A stretch of 64,000 nt of DNA from a virus. The stretch lies in the IMG/VR virus record IMGVR_UViG_3300020152_000019. One strand, written 5' to 3'. Every line of letters starts with the position of its first letter. Positions within the stretch are counted from its first letter, which is position 1. Below are positions 6,275 to 63,930 of the stretch, one piece after another. A program made the translations under genes and the position numbers. The notes beneath the pieces are model-generated. The model had not been told where the DNA came from and made no database searches. It worked only from the letters and a program-made list of their open reading frames with translations.

Positions 6275-7058
6275 GACCTTTCTCCTCTTCAGAATCCTTA
6301 GACAGTGGTTCGTCCTTCAATACATCATTAAACTTATCTAGGTATAGAGAAGCCGTAACTAGATTGCTGTAGAATACAGCAGGTAAGAAATTTACGTTAG
6401 CCACAGTGGAGAACAGATATTCGGTGTAAGAGAACAAGTCTTTAAATCCAAGATCATTAATTCTTTTTAACTCCTTCTGATCAGGTGTTTCAAAGAACAA
6501 TGCAGGAAAATAAAGCAATACATCTGGTAGTTTTGTTTTTTCTAAAGAAGCAGAATGATGATTCATCCATTCTTTAAAGTTATAAATAAAGCAAGTAATG
6601 ATTCCATTAGTGCTGATGAAATAAGGACTTACTTCTTTCGGAGGAAAATTAATTACGTTTACTAATGTGTTCGTATCAAGCTTGACAAACAACATGTTCT
6701 GCAACGCTTTCATTTGCGATTCAGAAAACTTAAACGGATACACGTTTAAGATCACTTCTGGTATTTTCTTCTCATTGTAGAAATTATTTCTTTTCTCTAA
6801 ATTACTAAGCTTCGATTTGAGAGAAATGAGAATGTGTGTGACCACACTAAATGGAATAAGATCAACCGTTTTATTACTATTGATTCTATCGTAGTCTTCT
6901 TGATTCACGACAGAGAACTTATCGATTTGCCGAAAGTTATATTCTTCAGAATTCAGATAAGTAGTTAATTCGTCTTTCTTTAACAGTTGAAGTAGAATAG
7001 CTCCTCTGACATCTAACAGCGATTCAATATCAACGTAGATTTTGGAAGTTTCTTTCAT
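6249..7058 (-). CDS. conserved jumbo-phage hypothetical protein (possibly degenerate HAD-like fold)
   Basis: 269 aa, N-terminal IYVDIESLLDVR; directly downstream of the vRNAP subunit. Confidence 0.6.
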   Translation of the reverse strand: MKETSKIYVDIESLLDVRGAILLQLLKKDELTTYLNSEEYNFRQIDKFSVVNQEDYDRINSNKTVDLIPFSVVTHILISLKSKLSNLEKRNNFYNEKKIPEVILNVYPFKFSESQMKALQNMLFVKLDTNTLVNVINFPPKEVSPYFISTNGIITCFIYNFKEWMNHHSASLEKTKLPDVLLYFPALFFETPDQKELKRINDLGFKDLFSYTEYLFSTVANVNFLPAVFYSNLVTASLYLDKFNDVLKDEPLSKDSEEEKGHVDSSTKV

Positions 7059-7059
7059 A

Positions 7060-7725
7060 TTAAATACTATTCGAAATATGCATCGCAGTGAGATAGGTCT
7101 TTAATGTCTTAGTGGATTCCACTCCACTAGAGTATTCCGACAATGTTTTCAGATTTGCATTACCATATCGTAAGAACATTGCGTTATATGCATTAAAGCC
7201 ATTTCTATCACCACCGCGATAGCGAATGAGTTCAGAGATAGTGTTATCCAATCCCATACCGATAAGAACTTGTAATTCCGGATACGAGATCTTCGCGCCT
7301 TTACTTTCACCGGTAGGTTGGAACGTAAGTTCGTCAATAACTTTGTTGTGCTCAGGAATACTGGTTTTCTTTAGCAGCGTTTGTGATTGACGACGATAAG
7401 GTAGATCCACAACTAGATACTTGATCGGTGTTTTATAATCAGGAGCATCCGTGTTATTGGTAAATACTAAATGCTCGAAGAATTCAAGACCGTATTTCTC
7501 AGCGATCTTCAGATTGTTTTCCACCGTAATCGAGTTAGCTTGGTACATCGGTTTAAAGATAACGAGATACTTCTTACCGTCTCGGATATCTTTCATGTAA
7601 GTGTCGAAGTCTTTGTCGGACATATTGGCAAAGATCTTCTTATATTGTTCGATATTATACCCAGTAGGTTCGATATCTTTTAAGAAATCCAAGATGAATT
7701 TCTCGGCAGCTTTTCGGTTAGCCAT
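7060..7725 (-). CDS. virion RNA polymerase beta subunit, C-terminal fragment (phiKZ gp149-like)
   Basis: RRQSQTLLKK...QPTGESKGAKISYPELQVL parallels the RNAP beta C-terminal QP.GG...GGQR.GEME region; start at MANRK. Confidence 0.8.
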   Translation of the reverse strand: MANRKAAEKFILDFLKDIEPTGYNIEQYKKIFANMSDKDFDTYMKDIRDGKKYLVIFKPMYQANSITVENNLKIAEKYGLEFFEHLVFTNNTDAPDYKTPIKYLVVDLPYRRQSQTLLKKTSIPEHNKVIDELTFQPTGESKGAKISYPELQVLIGMGLDNTISELIRYRGGDRNGFNAYNAMFLRYGNANLKTLSEYSSGVESTKTLKTYLTAMHISNSI

Positions 7726-44561: not shown

Positions 44562-44575
44562 TATATAGTGAACAG
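44562..44575 (+). promoter_or_regulatory. TATATAGTGAACAG motif upstream of the tRNA cluster
   Basis: identical 14-mer at 60477-60490 upstream of the second RNA cluster. Confidence 0.5.
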
Positions 44576-44584
44576 TAGTAATAT

Positions 44585-45242: not shown

Positions 45243-45332
45243 GGAGGTTTGGCCGAGCGGTCGATGGCACCGGTCTACTAAACCGGCATACGTGTAAACG
45301 TATCTAGGGTTCGAATCCCTAAGCCTCCGCCA
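45243..45332 (+). tRNA. trnS: tRNA-Ser(ACT)
   Basis: GGAGGTT/AGCCTCC acceptor stem, CCGGT-CTACTAA-ACCGG anticodon arm, long variable arm, G73, CCA. Confidence 0.9.
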
Positions 45333-56943: not shown

Positions 56944-58485
56944 ATGTTTAAAAATGTGAAAATTAAAACACGATTAATATTTGTATTGATGTTTCTATCT
57001 TTACAATTAATCGTAGGTGCGGTAATTGGACTTGCTGGAATTTATGCCGGTAACGAAGAGATGAAGTCTTTGTATGAAGATCGTCTTGTAGCGCTTGCTG
57101 ATTTAGACCAGTTGATTCGTCTTCTTAACATGAATCAACTTGATCTTGCAAAATCAGTGACTGATACTAATCCTGATGAAATAAAATCTATTCTTGCTTC
57201 AATTGAATCACGACGAGACATTTTCGAGAAAACGTGGAATGCTTACATGGCTACCACTTTAACTGCAGACGAAAAGCTCTTCGCAGACCAGTTGACTATC
57301 GAACGTCAAGTTTTCGTCAATGAAGGATTAAATCCTACCATTGAAGCAGTTCGTAAAGGTGACACTGCTGCTGCGATCGAACTCATCCACGGTAAAATGG
57401 AAAAGACCTTCGTACCGGTGCGTGAGTCTATCAATAAACTAATTAAATTGCAAACCGATGTCGCTCTTGAAAGTTATAACGCATCGCAAAGACAATACGT
57501 TTTAATTCGTAATTTTTGTATTTTCGGTGTAGCCGTTGGTTTGTTAATGGCTTTTGGTTCTTGTGTATGGTTAATTAAATCCATTACCACGCCGATAAAT
57601 AAAGCTATTGATATTGCTAAAGGCGTTGCGAATGGTGATCTCACACAACAAATCACTGTTGACTCCACCAATGAAATGGGTGAGTTAATGAAAGCTCTAT
57701 CTGATATGAATAACGGTTTGCAACAAATCGTACTTCAAGTCAGAGGAGGCACCCAGCTTATCAATACCGCGTCTAATGAAATTGCCAGTGGTAACGCAGA
57801 TCTTTCTTCTCGCACTGAACAACAAGCAGCTTCATTAGAAGAGACAGCATCGTCGCTTGAAGAACTTACTTCTACCGTTCATCAAAACGCAGATAACGCT
57901 AAACAAGCGAGTTCTATGTCATTAACAGCCGCAACAGTTGTTAGTGAAGGTGGACAAGCAGTTGAGCGGTTAATTAATACAATGTCTGATATTAGAACGA
58001 GTTCTAACAAGATTACTGAAATCATTGGTGTGATTGATGGTATCGCTTTTCAAACCAATATCTTAGCTTTAAACGCAGCAGTTGAAGCTGCTCGCGCCGG
58101 AGAACAAGGTAGAGGTTTTGCGGTAGTTGCAACAGAAGTCAGAAGTTTAGCGCAACGTTCAGCCGCAGCAGCAAAAGAAATTAAAGAACTCATTAATCGT
58201 TCTGTAATGAATGTGGCTACCGGAAGTGATCAAGTTGAACATGTAGGTACAAAGATTAAAGACGCAGTAGCAAGCATTCAACGAGTCAATGATATCATGA
58301 CTGAAATTGCAGCAGCTAGTGCAGAGCAATCGACTGGCATTGATCAAATCAATACTGCTGTTTCACAAATGGATCAGGTAACTCAACAAAACGCAGCTTT
58401 AGTTGAACAAGCAGCAGCAGCGGCGGAAAGTATGAAAGAACAAGCTAATCAGTTAGCTCAAATCGTAAGTACTTTCAAAGTTTGA
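56944..58485 (+). CDS. methyl-accepting chemotaxis protein (full length)
   Basis: TM1, four-helix sensor, TM2, HAMP, signalling hairpin IAFQTNILALNAAVEAARAGEQGRGFAVVATEVRSLA, methylation helices. Confidence 0.97.
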   Translation: MFKNVKIKTRLIFVLMFLSLQLIVGAVIGLAGIYAGNEEMKSLYEDRLVALADLDQLIRLLNMNQLDLAKSVTDTNPDEIKSILASIESRRDIFEKTWNAYMATTLTADEKLFADQLTIERQVFVNEGLNPTIEAVRKGDTAAAIELIHGKMEKTFVPVRESINKLIKLQTDVALESYNASQRQYVLIRNFCIFGVAVGLLMAFGSCVWLIKSITTPINKAIDIAKGVANGDLTQQITVDSTNEMGELMKALSDMNNGLQQIVLQVRGGTQLINTASNEIASGNADLSSRTEQQAASLEETASSLEELTSTVHQNADNAKQASSMSLTAATVVSEGGQAVERLINTMSDIRTSSNKITEIIGVIDGIAFQTNILALNAAVEAARAGEQGRGFAVVATEVRSLAQRSAAAAKEIKELINRSVMNVATGSDQVEHVGTKIKDAVASIQRVNDIMTEIAAASAEQSTGIDQINTAVSQMDQVTQQNAALVEQAAAAAESMKEQANQLAQIVSTFKV

Positions 58486-60458: not shown

Positions 60459-60519
60459 AAAAATACTAGAAATCCATATATAGTGAACAGAACGCAACCT
60501 GCATTTGAAGTAAACACAA

Positions 60520-60530
60520 TTGCATATATA
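60520..60530 (+). promoter_or_regulatory. TTGCATATATA promoter-like motif
   Basis: one-mismatch copy with TTGAA and GTGA, heads the RNA island. Confidence 0.6.
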
Positions 60531-60572
60531 TTAAGTGATATAAGCATATGTGTAATTCCTATAGGAGATTAA

Positions 60573-60743
60573 ATGTCGACTGAAGAATTGAATGCTGAAA
60601 ATGCAAAGATTGCAGCAGACGCTAAGGAAGCACACAAAATCCTTTCTGAGCTTTGCTACAATCATGACGAGAATGCAACGCTTACTGATTTAGCAAATCG
60701 TGTGCGTAACATTGTAGTCGCTTCAACAGGTTGCGATCACTAG
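60573..60743 (+). CDS. hypothetical 56-aa protein
   Basis: AGGAG RBS; MSTEELNAEN...GCDH. Confidence 0.65.
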   Translation: MSTEELNAENAKIAADAKEAHKILSELCYNHDENATLTDLANRVRNIVVASTGCDH

Positions 60744-60752
60744 CAAGAATTT

Positions 60753-61343
60753 GCCCGAGTGGTGAAATTGGTAGACACAGCGGACTTATTGAAAAATTGA
60801 GCACCTACGAAAAATGCGGAAGTAAAACTTCAAACTAACCTTCCCGATCAAAAGGGAAAACTTGTAAGAAGGAATTTCGCAACCGAAAGGCGTATAAACA
60901 TTCTTCGGAATGGGTGAATCTCTTCAAATTCGGCGAACACTAAAAAAGCGATGAAGTCAGAGACTTCGCATAGTCGCATTAGCTCGGTGATACCGTCGAG
61001 CTAATTGATGTCAACGCCGAGCCAAGCCTGATAAGATCCTTTAAAGTATGGGTAAACTTCAGGAAGGTGTAGAGACTGTAAGGAGAGGATCTAAGTAGAG
61101 AGGGAGCAGGAATAGGTACCTGTTCACGGCAAGCAATTGCGTGTAATCAAATCGCCTTATCAAAACCCGATCTATACGATCAAGACACAGTCCAGACCAC
61201 GAACAGCGTATTCCATAAGTAGCTTCGGTCTTAACCTAAGCGAAATAGATGGTTGATCTCTGGCGTCGAAAGACGAAGTGGTAAGAAAATCCGCCGCTTA
61301 CCCGAGAGGGGGCGTACCGGTTCGATTCCGGTTTCGGGCACCA
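60753..61343 (+). tRNA. trnL: tRNA-Leu(TAA) split by a group I intron (exons 60753-60787 and 61286-61343)
   Basis: GCCCGAG/TTCGGGC acceptor stem; the splice rebuilds GCGGA-CTTAAAA-TCCGC; long variable arm; CCA. Confidence 0.92.
60788..61285 (+). mobile_element. group I intron (IC3-like, trnL(UAA) type), no ORF
   Basis: P/Q/R/S elements (CAAATTCGGCG, CGCCGAGCCAA, GAAGGTGTAGAGACTG, AAGACACAGTCC), P3 CTCTTC/GGAGAG, P9.0 ACCAC/GTGGT, terminal G after the U34 exon. Confidence 0.9.
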
Positions 61344-61345
61344 GA

Positions 61346-61990
61346 AAAGGTTCGGTAGTGAACCTCCCCTCTAAGCTTCGGCTTAGAGACAAGCCTCCTT
61401 TGGCAACTACCAAAAAGGCTAGGCAGGTAGCCTCCTCTCTGAATTTAGGTTTAGAGCCAAGTCCACTTGGACACCTGCCAGATTCACGTCGTGAGACGTT
61501 TATACTTAGACACCACCGTTGAAAGACGGTAAAGATCCAAAGCTTGCGTGCAGGGGCGGCCTGCTTCAAGAGCCATTTGAAATGCCGTAAAACCACCTGT
61601 AACTGGACTAAGTCCTAAGAGGGTGTAACTAATCCGGTAAGGCAACGGTAGTACTTGAATTAAGAATTAAAACGTGGATCGGTGAATCTTCTCAAAGTCG
61701 GTATGACTAAAAAAGCGATGAGGCTAGAGGTCTCTTAAGTTGCATTAGCTCGGTGTTATCGTCGAGCTAATTGATGTCAAAATCGAGCCAAGCTTAATGA
61801 TTCTATTAGATAACTTTCCTACCGGTGTGTTATTTGATAGTTTCTATTATGAAGGTGTAAGACTAATGGGAAGTACTGTTACTACTAAACTGACAGGAAG
61901 GGGAAGTTGGTAACAGTAAAAGGTCTAACCCATGAGCATAAATGAATCCTCCTGAGAAAAGTGTTCTGTTTATGTTTGTGGTTCTATTCT
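61346..61990 (+). ncRNA. free-standing group-I-derived structured RNA with a multi-hairpin 5' domain
   Basis: 61681-61930 is paralogous to the intron core with compensatory P3/P4 changes; 5' region rich in UUCG/GNRA hairpins; no exons found. Confidence 0.65.
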
Positions 61991-62006
61991 AAGAGAATAA
62001 GGAAAT

Positions 62007-62045
62007 ACCCTCAGGGAGCAATCCCTGAGGTTTCTAAATTTTTCC
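62007..62045 (+). terminator. intrinsic terminator-like hairpin
   Basis: CCTCAGGGA-GCAA-TCCCTGAGG followed by a T-rich tract. Confidence 0.65.
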
Positions 62046-62182
62046 TTGAGTGCGGTTGAACTGTATTTACGATTGTTCTTAGCTTTGCATTCGTGAGAGT
62101 GTAAGGATATTGTAAATGCGGTTGTTATTACCTCCGCATTCGAGAAGAATCAAGAGAGTAACATCTCTTGTATTATTGTCGT

Positions 62183-62515
62183 ATGGAGAGGGTAAAACTT
62201 CTCTGAGACTTTCAAGGTGAAAGGCTTCTGGACGCGGGTTCGATTCCCGCCTCGTCCAATAAGTACATTCTAACGAGTGTGGTTATTGGGCGAGTACTGG
62301 TTTCGACAGGGGTTAAGTAGGTGAGAAGGAACGACACGTCCATGAGCGCGGACGTTAATCTGGGTTCAATAAAGTAAATGCTGCTAATGATAGCCATTTC
62401 CGCGCTGCTGCCTAAAAACAGCTAACGGATGAGGTCACTAATCTAGTTCGCTAGGTTAGGTCGTCTACTCTCCCGATAATGACGGAGTCCTTATACCCCA
62501 AACAGGTAGACGACA
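62183..62515 (+). ncRNA. ssrA: circularly permuted two-piece tmRNA (acceptor piece ends 62258; coding piece starts 62288)
   Basis: T-arm GCGGG-TTCGATT-CCCGC plus CTCGTCC-A precedes GGGCGAG-TACTGGTTTCGAC; G3-U70 pair; tag ORF 62380-62415 (AANDSHFRAAA*); outer ends approximate. Confidence 0.9.
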
Positions 62516-62521
62516 CACGAC

Positions 62522-62598
62522 GTGCCCATAGCTCAGTAGGATAGAGCAACAGCCTTCTAAGCTGTGGGTCGGGGGTTCGAATCCCTCTGGGCGCGCCA
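62522..62598 (+). tRNA. trnR: tRNA-Arg(TCT)
   Basis: GTGCCCA/TGGGCGC acceptor stem, ACAGC-CTTCTAA-GCTGT anticodon arm, CCA. Confidence 0.95.
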
Positions 62599-62606
62599 TT
62601 GTTTCT

Positions 62607-62662
62607 GTAGTAAACTGAACTCAATCGAGTCAGAATTTTATAACTGTTATCTCGTTAAGGAG
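62607..62662 (+). repeat. leader repeat copy 1
   Basis: GTAGTAAACTGAACTCAATCGAGTCAG...AACTG...CTCGTTAAGG. Confidence 0.8.
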
Positions 62663-62668
62663 ATTAAT

Positions 62669-62872
62669 ATGAATGCTACCGCTCAACAAGCTGCGGAACA
62701 ATGTATTAGGAAGCATCATTTAGTATTAGATGAAAAACATAAACAGCTATTAATCGGACTTTTCGAGCAAGTCGAAGTTACGAAAAAAGGTATTTATTTA
62801 CACGAGCTTGGGAATAAGATAAGTAATTTTATCAAAACCCAAAAACGTAAACAACGCATGAAATTGAATTAA
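62669..62872 (+). CDS. hypothetical protein
   Basis: AAGGAG RBS before MNATAQQ. Confidence 0.7.
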   Translation: MNATAQQAAEQCIRKHHLVLDEKHKQLLIGLFEQVEVTKKGIYLHELGNKISNFIKTQKRKQRMKLN

Positions 62873-62874
62873 GA

Positions 62875-62930
62875 GTAGTAAACTGAACTCAATAGAGTCA
62901 GTCTTTTTTAAACTGTGTTCTCGTTAAGGG
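62875..62930 (+). repeat. leader repeat copy 2
   Basis: GTAGTAAACTGAACTCAATAGAGTCAG...AACTG...CTCGTTAAGG. Confidence 0.8.
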
Positions 62931-62939
62931 GAAATTAAA

Positions 62940-63305
62940 GTGTCAAATCTTCATATTGTAAAAACTGAATCTACTAAGCTTCAGTCTCGTATTTATAATG
63001 TAATCAAAGTTCTAGCTGGTTTAAATAAAACCACAATTATCAGGAAAGAAATTGTTGATTACTCTCGCTTCACTATCGAACATCCTCAGGCTTATGTTCC
63101 TGATTTTGACTTCGAGTGGTGCGACTCTAAAAAGCATTATCGAGTGTATATCCATCAAGCATTTACTAACGAAGCTAAACGCCGTCGTGGTTACTGCATT
63201 GCTGTGATTAACGGACCACTCGCTGCTACCGAATTCGTGCAGATGTATAAGTTCTTACATAAGCACCGCGCCAATAACAAAGATTCTATGCAAGAAGCAG
63301 CGTAA
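62940..63305 (+). CDS. hypothetical protein
   Basis: 121 aa, GTG start after AAGGGG. Confidence 0.75.
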   Translation: MSNLHIVKTESTKLQSRIYNVIKVLAGLNKTTIIRKEIVDYSRFTIEHPQAYVPDFDFEWCDSKKHYRVYIHQAFTNEAKRRRGYCIAVINGPLAATEFVQMYKFLHKHRANNKDSMQEAA

Positions 63306-63307
63306 AG

Positions 63308-63810
63308 AATACCCTCTGCAATACACAGAGTATGGATGACAAACTCATATTACCGGGGTAAGCGCAAGCAGCCGTCGGATAATGGTGATAAGGTCTACCC
63401 AATGTAGGAGCCGTGATAGTTAGACATTGATCTATACAGATTCGTGTCTACCAAGCGTCTAGGACATCGCCTTCGCACGACAAAGCGAACAAGCCTTGTT
63501 AAACGGTCTAGATAGATTCTTTACTGACTCAACCAGTTTATGAATGACGCTTTTGCTGCTGTTGAACTTATCGTGCTGAAACTGATCATTTCAGCGGTGG
63601 AGAAAACCTTTTATTCGGTAGACCTTGTTCGAGGAGTATAAGGTGGACATAGAAGCTAGATAAGAGCCGGGACCGCACTGACTGGCGGAGTGTCAAGTCG
63701 TCTGATACCAATTTGATTACGGGGTAGCTATATCCCTGACGGCTTAATAGAAGTGGAAGGAAACTTTTGCCTGAAGGCAGTTGGGAGTGGTATCCTAATT
63801 GTCTTTGGAG
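63308..63810 (+). ncRNA. unidentified large structured RNA
   Basis: GC-richer gene-free region with nested long-range helices (63370/63744, 63390/63626, 63453/63552); ends approximate. Confidence 0.6.
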
Positions 63811-63832
63811 AAAAGTTTTTAATAATAAAGAA

Positions 63833-63871
63833 ACTAGAGAAAGGAGTAACATCCTTTCTCTAGGGTATTCT
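63833..63871 (+). terminator. intrinsic terminator
   Basis: CTAGAGAAAGGA/TCCTTTCTCTAG then a T tract. Confidence 0.75.
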
Positions 63872-63930
63872 TTTTTTGCTGTACCTGAGTCACGGCGGGT
63901 CTCCGTGGCATTTTTAATAGGAGTTTCTAA

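Follow-up and report, generated by a model that had tools for sequence, protein, structure and literature searches.

The RNA genes gathered towards the end of a 64,000-nt stretch of viral DNA (IMG/VR virus record IMGVR_UViG_3300020152_000019; hereafter the window) probably form the principal RNA island of an uncultured jumbo phage of ~234 kb, a hot spot in which RNA genes acquired independently of one another have accumulated, along with mobile RNA elements, behind a shared type of promoter. Annotations of phage tRNA islands usually amount to a list of tRNAs. The island described here comprises a tRNA-Leu(UAA) gene split by a group I intron, an exon-less RNA derived from such an intron (the free RNA), a two-piece transfer-messenger RNA (tmRNA), a tRNA-Arg(UCU), two small open reading frames (ORFs) each standing behind a copy of a 57-nt leader, and a large structured RNA at the 3' end (the 3' RNA). 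All seven of these elements had been recognised in an initial annotation of the sequence and exist on the + strand at about the positions assigned to them (Table 1). The free RNA and the 3' RNA, both conserved and both without an Rfam family, are the more novel parts of the island. The comparisons set out below establish what the parts are, where they begin and end, how far they are conserved and where they come from, and their ancestries are separate: tRNA-Leu exons and an insertion site of Burkholderiales type, an intron body from a phage lineage, and a two-piece tmRNA of beta-proteobacterial origin.

Table 1. Position of the island's elements and of the adjoining signals in the window.
Feature	Position	Strand	Evidence or details
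Promoter-like motif TTGAAA-N18-TATAGT, overlapping motif TATATAGTGAACAGAA	60455..60492	+	sigma-70 consensus, 10/12 positions
ORF56, orphan small ORF with good ribosome-binding site	60573..60743	+	ORF list
tRNA-Leu(UAA) 5' exon, ending at U34	60753..60787	+	ARAGORN intron mode; in silico joining
Group I intron, IC3 'Leu.3Ug' type, 498 nt, without ORF	60788..61285	+	splice context, Rfam, alignment
tRNA-Leu(UAA) 3' exon, CCA encoded	61286..61343	+	ARAGORN intron mode, alignment
Free RNA, exon-less and group I intron-derived, ~690 nt	61344..62035	+	core 61681-61926; closing hairpin 62009-62030
Two-piece (permuted) tmRNA	62154..62514	+	acceptor 3' strand 62251-62257; coding piece from 62288; tag frame 62380-62415; 3' hairpin 62461-62514
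tRNA-Arg(UCU), canonical	62522..62598	+	ARAGORN; Rfam tRNA, 67.7 bits
Leader copy 1	62607..62668	+	hairpin CUGAACUC...GAGUCAG, U-rich run, hairpin containing the Shine-Dalgarno sequence; repeat families D2 and D3
ORF67, small protein of 67 aa	62669..62872	+	ORF list
Leader copy 2	62875..62939	+	repeat copy of leader 1
ORF121, conserved phage protein family, 121 aa	62940..63305	+	homologues and AlphaFold model
3' RNA, conserved and structured, ~520 nt, no described family	63306..63832	+	alignments A1, A5 and A7
Intrinsic terminator	63834..63876	+	12-bp stem, then U run; -20.5 kcal/mol, z = -4.7

That the window belongs to an uncultured jumbo phage follows from the phiKZ-type internal head proteins encoded in it and from a 234,290-bp contig in the protein collection that carries its proteins. 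The window, with a G+C content of 34-43%, further encodes tail fibres with Kelch repeats and a head-tail joining protein, and chimallin is also encoded by a more distant relative holding a homologue of the 121-aa island protein. Relatives were retrieved by means of the flanking proteins, which gave nine related contigs with an RNA island at the same locus, and four relatives (L010, L011, L012 and L155) span the tRNA-Leu gene. The sequencing runs from which the contigs derive are SRR22387779, SRR29397367, SRR11351224, SRR5008235 and SRR28988109. Protein-based searches of IMG/VR with the 121-aa and 107-aa proteins returned no relative, and the tRNA-Arg was the sole match of the island in INPHARED by blastn.

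Every recovered relative carries RNA genes at this locus; their content, however, varies. L010 has a tRNA-Leu without intron, the free RNA, a fragment of tRNA-Thr, an HNH gene, a tRNA-Thr and the 3' RNA, and lacks the tmRNA and the gene for a 122-aa protein. The 122-aa gene and the 3' RNA occur together in L006, L004 and L005; in addition to these two, L006 has a tmRNA, a tRNA fragment, an HNH gene and a tRNA-Thr, L004 the tail of a tmRNA and a tRNA-Thr, and L005 a tRNA and a 70-aa ORF. L009 has a tRNA-Arg(UCU), the leader and the 122-aa gene without the 3' RNA. A 43-kb contig shows a 3-kb gap without genes at the same place. The tRNA-Thr of L004, L006 and L010 stands where the window has its tRNA-Arg, with or without an HNH nuclease gene. 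Both L006 (300-1015) and L010 (3860-4508) present a tRNA 5' half ending in the anticodon loop, an HNH_3 endonuclease gene and a complete 86-nt tRNA, a layout which looks like the homing-type replacement of a tRNA gene; the complete tRNA is itself odd, with the anticodon UGU (Thr) yet a long variable arm of class II (Leu/Ser) type. Because the HNH gene lies between a broken tRNA half and a complete tRNA, the island is a recombination hot spot. Homing-endonuclease activity in phage tRNA regions is described for T4/T6 SegB (PMC13096335), which the HNH gene and broken tRNA half of L006 and L010 resemble, whereas the island of the window has no endonuclease gene and its intron no ORF.

The sigma-70-like motif ahead of the island presumably acts as its promoter and is kept upstream of tRNA-Leu in all four relatives that span this gene. 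A 16-nt motif, TATATAGTGAACAGWA, occurs at 60477-60492 and again, with one mismatch, at 44562-44577, preceded by TTACTA or ATACTA, the second copy lying just upstream of a tRNA-Asn/tRNA-Ser cluster at 44.6 kb, ~16 kb from the island. The TATATAGTGAACAGWA motif is a candidate promoter class for the RNA genes of this phage. The tRNA-Ser called by both ARAGORN and Rfam at 45243-45332 has the anticodon ACU, with an unusual A34. Strong hairpins with U-rich tails, at 62009-62030 and 63834-63863, divide the island.

The initial annotation had suggested that the island might be one integrated module of translation rescue and defence evasion, in which interrupted or permuted RNAs would be immune to host anticodon nucleases until processed and would act together with the small proteins. 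Some of the observations behind this proposal hold: all elements are co-oriented behind one conserved promoter-like motif, the RNA locus and its core gene order are kept in relatives, and the tRNAs fit the phage's top codons, TTA (37% of Leu codons) and AGA (38% of Arg codons) being the commonest of their kind in 42 window ORFs; the initial annotation had called both codons common. Phage tRNAs are, in addition, known to counter tRNA-cleaving defences, as discussed in PMC13096335. Functional unity, on the other hand, fares poorly. The intron is absent from four of four relatives, so that 'intron gating' has not been conserved as a design; L010 has no tmRNA, and the tRNA-Arg is exchanged for tRNA-Thr in three relatives. 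Permutation of the tmRNA is ancestral to a bacterial lineage, and a spliced or processed RNA would be no less cleavable than others. The two strong U-tailed hairpins lie inside the island, and the second tRNA cluster, with the same motif, means that the translation RNAs of the phage are not gathered in one unit. No small ORF of the island belongs to a known translation-related family or has a Pfam or PHROG family of known function, and no Pfam match to SmpB was obtained at E<=0.1 among the eight ORFs located in the island or immediately ahead of it. The comparisons accordingly give no support to one integrated module for rescue or defence evasion, which appears quite unlikely; the useful outcome for that claim is a negative one.

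The tRNA-Leu(UAA) gene escapes ARAGORN in its default mode and is found in intron mode as tRNA-Leu(taa) i(36,498) at 60753-61343, and joining 60787 to 61286 in silico produces a canonical 93-nt tRNA-Leu(UAA) with encoded CCA, which confirms that the gene is split by an intron. The insertion lies between U34 and A35, at a junction that is the same in the four intronless relatives and in four bacterial split alleles. The splice context is CUU/a...g/AAAA; in the P1 helix, the exon CUU pairs with the GAG of UUGAGC 12 nt downstream, with a U-G wobble at U-1, and the intron ends in ...GGUAAG with a terminal G, bacterial homologues being arranged alike. Splice context, P1 wobble and terminal G are identical in the classical bacterial and plastid tRNA-Leu(UAA) intron of type IC3, which also has the core blocks CAACGCCGAGCCAAGC and AAGGTGTAGAGACT in common with the window intron. 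Bacterial introns have the core blocks in identical form, and covariation across the family is seen at P3, P4, P6 and P7, with P3 reading CUCUUC/GGAGAG in the intron of the window, CCCCUC/GGGGGG in the bacterial introns and CUUCUC/GGGAAG in further phage copies. The window intron is predicted to be self-splicing. The 'Leu.3Ug' class was defined by Williams 2020 (10.1101/2020.01.27.920355) in a survey of bacterial and archaeal genomes. Unlike the classical introns, the window intron resides in a jumbo phage, measures 498 nt against ~220-290 nt in bacterial examples, with expanded P2, P5, P6, P8 and P9, has a P5 extension in common with the exon-less copy, and scores 37.9 bits against the Rfam model Intron_gpI (60814-61211; E 2.9e-7), below the gathering score of 50.

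Two intron core blocks scanned over bacterial genomes gave >120 matches, many of them in Burkholderiales, and tRNA-Leu(UAA) genes split at the same position were found in Rhodoferax (one), Burkholderiaceae (two) and Paraburkholderia (one), with exons nearly identical to those of the window, anticodon stem included. The elements nearest to the intron body, in contrast to the exons, are found in the IMG/VR phage contigs L014 and L013. In L014, a 250-kb contig, a member of the same intron family of ~613 nt splits a tRNA at 6630-7322, which is Arg(UCU) under the rule of U-1 and terminal G, whereas ARAGORN places the borders differently and calls Ser(gct). The P5 region of the L014 intron holds a tRNA-like insert (6921-6987; Rfam tRNA, 34.3 bits). 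L013 carries a free-standing copy of the intron family in front of tRNA-Arg(UCU) and tRNA-Leu(UAA). A 21-mer from P5/P6 of the window intron has 0 matches in IMG/VR. In the four relatives spanning tRNA-Leu, ORF56 is absent together with the intron and tRNA-Leu directly follows the promoter-like motif, and the window appears to carry a replacement of ~1 kb, from 60493 to about 61530. ORF56 has no homologue besides itself among 5.8 billion proteins and no credible Pfam or PHROG family. On these comparisons, the intron is a recent, lineage-specific arrival from an IC3 lineage of bacterial type that circulates among jumbo-phage tRNA genes, in tRNA-Leu(UAA) here and in tRNA-Arg(UCU) in L014. According to a 2014 review (PMC3984707), all phage group I introns then known lay in protein-coding genes and none in tRNA genes, and no later description of introns in phage tRNA genes was found in the literature.

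The free RNA starts directly after the CCA of tRNA-Leu, and the earlier view of it as intron-derived is borne out by one continuous 118-nt match of 80.5% identity, running from P3 to P6, between 61678-61793 and the intron at 60910-61027. The + strand of 61344-62035 has no ORF of >38 aa. A second tRNA intron at this place was considered and rejected, ARAGORN in intron mode finding no split tRNA there or around the copies of L010, L012 and L013. Orthologues of 1.2-1.3 kb lie directly after tRNA-Leu in L010 (2625-3860) and L012 (957-2290), and the start of one in L155; in all three the accompanying tRNA-Leu is intronless. A tRNA intron of this kind can leave behind a conserved exon-less RNA which persists in intronless relatives. 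The orthologues keep a 5' block, the P3-P7 core and the closing hairpin, in which the loop is invariant and the stem covaries. In its P5 extension, the window copy is closer to the window intron than to its orthologues, which points to exchange between the two copies within this genome.

Compared with true introns, the free RNA has a J6/7 one nucleotide shorter, a P7 without bulge and a changed J8/7; the segment after P7 differs, and the AGACCACRAACAG segment is missing. P3, P4, P6 and P7 are still able to pair. The Intron_gpI model finds no match to the free RNA, the thresholds being E<=10 for the window and E<=1 for L010 and L012, and no other Rfam family matches it at E<=10. The alignment folds with an energy z of -6.7 relative to column shuffles, and the number of compensatory pairs, from three sequences, is not above the shuffles. 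The altered catalytic junctions and lost segment, the missing Rfam match, the tmRNA without encoded CCA, the HNH genes and broken tRNA halves at the same locus in relatives and the orphan ORF56 would all suit a graveyard of selfish and decaying RNAs, made up of a neutral parasite intron, a dead intron copy and a decaying captured host tmRNA without CCA, in which only the tRNAs matter. Such a graveyard is nevertheless unlikely. The free RNA occupies the same place in L010, L012 and L155 although their neighbouring proteins are only 57-74% identical to those of the window, and it shows conserved blocks, a covarying closing hairpin and the fold energy given above; the tmRNA, for its part, retains a G3-U70 pair and an undamaged tag frame, and its 3' hairpin is shared with L006 and covaries.

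Two further proposals go beyond the island as a hot spot of separately acquired elements and concern what its large RNAs do. It is possible, and put forward here tentatively, that the ~690-nt RNA, an exon-less descendant of a group I intron from a tRNA gene, has been domesticated and is maintained by selection in a clade of jumbo phages, even in members without any intron, and that the ~520-nt RNA represents a second new class of large phage RNA. If true, a ribozyme scaffold would have been put to new use, for example in the processing of tRNA or tmRNA precursors or in acting on RNAs with a CUU anticodon loop. The other proposal has the free RNA, and perhaps the 3' RNA as well, process or scaffold the transcripts of the island, for example by cutting the precursor between tRNA-Leu and tmRNA or by forming a cage like that of GOLLD or ROOL which holds the tRNAs. 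The free RNA does always lie directly 3' of tRNA-Leu(UAA) and preserves P3, P4, P6 and P7, its intron family recurs beside tRNA-Leu(UAA) and tRNA-Arg(UCU), both with a CUU loop that pairs with the guide GAG (L013, L014), and GOLLD and ROOL provide a precedent. However, the aligned guide in the window copy is AGA, without the U-G wobble, which returns only after a shift of one base; the covariation count, from three sequences only, does not exceed the shuffles, and the activity of the RNA is conjectural. This processing or scaffolding role is very unlikely.

The 3' RNA is conserved in L004, L005, L006 and L010. Among 143 pairs predicted by RNAalifold, 45 are compensatory, as against 9.7 +/- 3.6, with a maximum of 22, in column shuffles of the alignments, and the energy z is -9.7. 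The RNA ends in a strong terminator, and its initial designation as a large non-coding RNA is confirmed. The island thus has, at its end, a second large RNA that covaries strongly and belongs to no described family. Between 59500 and 64000, no credible Rfam match at E<=10 was obtained for it, and RNase P, a group II intron, GOLLD and ROOL were rejected as candidates in the absence of an Rfam match. Three motifs of the 3' RNA gave chance matches only in IMG/VR, with no surrounding blastn similarity, and a longer motif had 0 matches in Joint Genome Institute (JGI) metagenomes. GOLLD and ROOL are located near phage tRNA islands (10.1101/2024.12.08.627333), and both window RNAs are like them in being large (0.5-0.7 kb), highly structured, protein-free and situated beside phage tRNA genes. 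Neither, however, matches the GOLLD or ROOL covariance models at E<=10, and the group I intron ancestry of the free RNA is clear; the likeness is one of setting, not of family membership. Both RNAs are small enough for direct ribozyme and structure assays, and they enlarge the small set of large phage RNAs formed by GOLLD and ROOL.

The tmRNA is recognised as two-piece by Rfam families RF04321 (94.9 bits; gathering 47) and RF01850 (99 bits; gathering 84) and is called tmRNA* at 62169-62506 by ARAGORN, in agreement with the initial annotation. Its acceptor piece is encoded upstream of the coding piece, which is the permuted order, and the tag AANDSHFRAAA is followed by a stop (62380-62415). The acceptor stem is GGGCGAG/CUCGUCC, with a G3-U70 pair and the discriminator A; since the window reads ...CUCGUCC-A-AUAAG at 62251-62262, CCA is not encoded, whereas the L006 homologue encodes it. 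The host CCA-adding enzyme could supply the CCA. The 3' hairpin at 62461-62514 covaries with that of L006, GUCGUCUAC/GUAGACGAC in the window corresponding to GUCAACCGG/CCGGUUGAC, and is an extra element common to this phage relative only. Two-piece tmRNAs are known from phages, 53 permuted ones having been counted among 18,146 phage genomes, for example in the methylophage Melnitz (PMC9004378). These and the RF01850 family have the permuted order, the G3-U70 pair and a tag of ANDxxFxxAA type in common with the window tmRNA, which departs from them in the CCA that is not encoded, the tag end AAA and the lack of a riboswitch detected upstream. The two-piece tmRNA of Propionivibrio (RF01850, 268 bits) matches the phage tmRNA in layout and has an identical T arm, while Polynucleobacter and Limnohabitans gave weak tmRNA matches only. 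The permuted layout was inherited from this bacterial lineage and is therefore not a phage adaptation. The neighbouring tRNA-Arg(UCU) stands as first annotated.

Taken as a hot spot of independently acquired elements, the island would work through its separate products. The tRNA-Leu(UAA), after self-splicing of the intron, and the tRNA-Arg(UCU) probably supply decoding of TTA and AGA, and the two-piece tmRNA, together with host SmpB, probably releases stalled ribosomes during infection; the ~690-nt descendant of an exon-less intron and the ornate ~520-nt RNA would both be conserved products. Several points weigh against this reading. Everything it says of expression, from transcription at the motif and splicing to what the tmRNA, the small proteins and the two large RNAs do, is what we infer from sequence. 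The core order of tRNA-Leu, free RNA, a tRNA and 3' RNA is kept across relatives, and some functional coupling invisible to sequence comparison could therefore exist. The tmRNA may be impaired by its missing CCA. The argument from codon supply, lastly, is incomplete on the side of the host, for which the tRNA-Leu exons and the tmRNA type both give no more than a hint of a beta-proteobacterium, of the Burkholderiales or Rhodocyclaceae.

Between the tRNA-Arg and the 3' RNA, the two leaders are 82-89% identical over 57 nt and stand one before each small ORF, as initially described; the control that they would exert on these ORFs is putative. Their hairpin motif is found at those two sites only in the window (0 expected by chance), and L009 has the same leader hairpin before its 122-aa gene; the segment UUCUCGUNAAGGAGA is kept in all relatives. 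Leader 1 folds weakly better than shuffled sequence (z = -1.1). Strong riboswitch-like structures were rejected for the leaders, whose fold z is only -1.1 to -1.9, as was a recurrent phage promoter or ribosome-binding motif, the hairpin motif being limited to the two window sites. ORF67 has one weak PHROG match (E 0.009) and is 29% identical to the 70-aa ORF of L005, located there after the 122-aa gene. ORF121 has seven close homologues and 85 cluster representatives, and its AlphaFold model (pLDDT 90) shows a fold of a helix, a five-strand sheet and two helices, for which Foldseek found no significant or informative match in the PDB or the AlphaFold clusters. Homologues of ORF121 often adjoin tRNA genes in relatives, and the family may have an RNA-related role. 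In distant jumbo phages (L001:10001-10523, L027:6488-7357 and L009:1667-2204), an ORF121 homologue adjoins a tRNA for Met or Arg(UCU). By blastn, the distant metagenomic contigs with ORF121 homologues (L026-L034) are without the island RNAs.

Past the terminator, a second hairpin at 63889-63909 lies directly before the ribosome-binding site of the next gene; it is 97% identical in L010 (5187-5223) and is present in L004 too. Upstream of the island, a 513-aa ORF at 56944-58485 has the look of a methyl-accepting chemotaxis protein, as judged by its translation only, with two N-terminal hydrophobic segments and a long alanine- and glutamine-rich coiled-coil C-terminus, and would be an unusual phage cargo.

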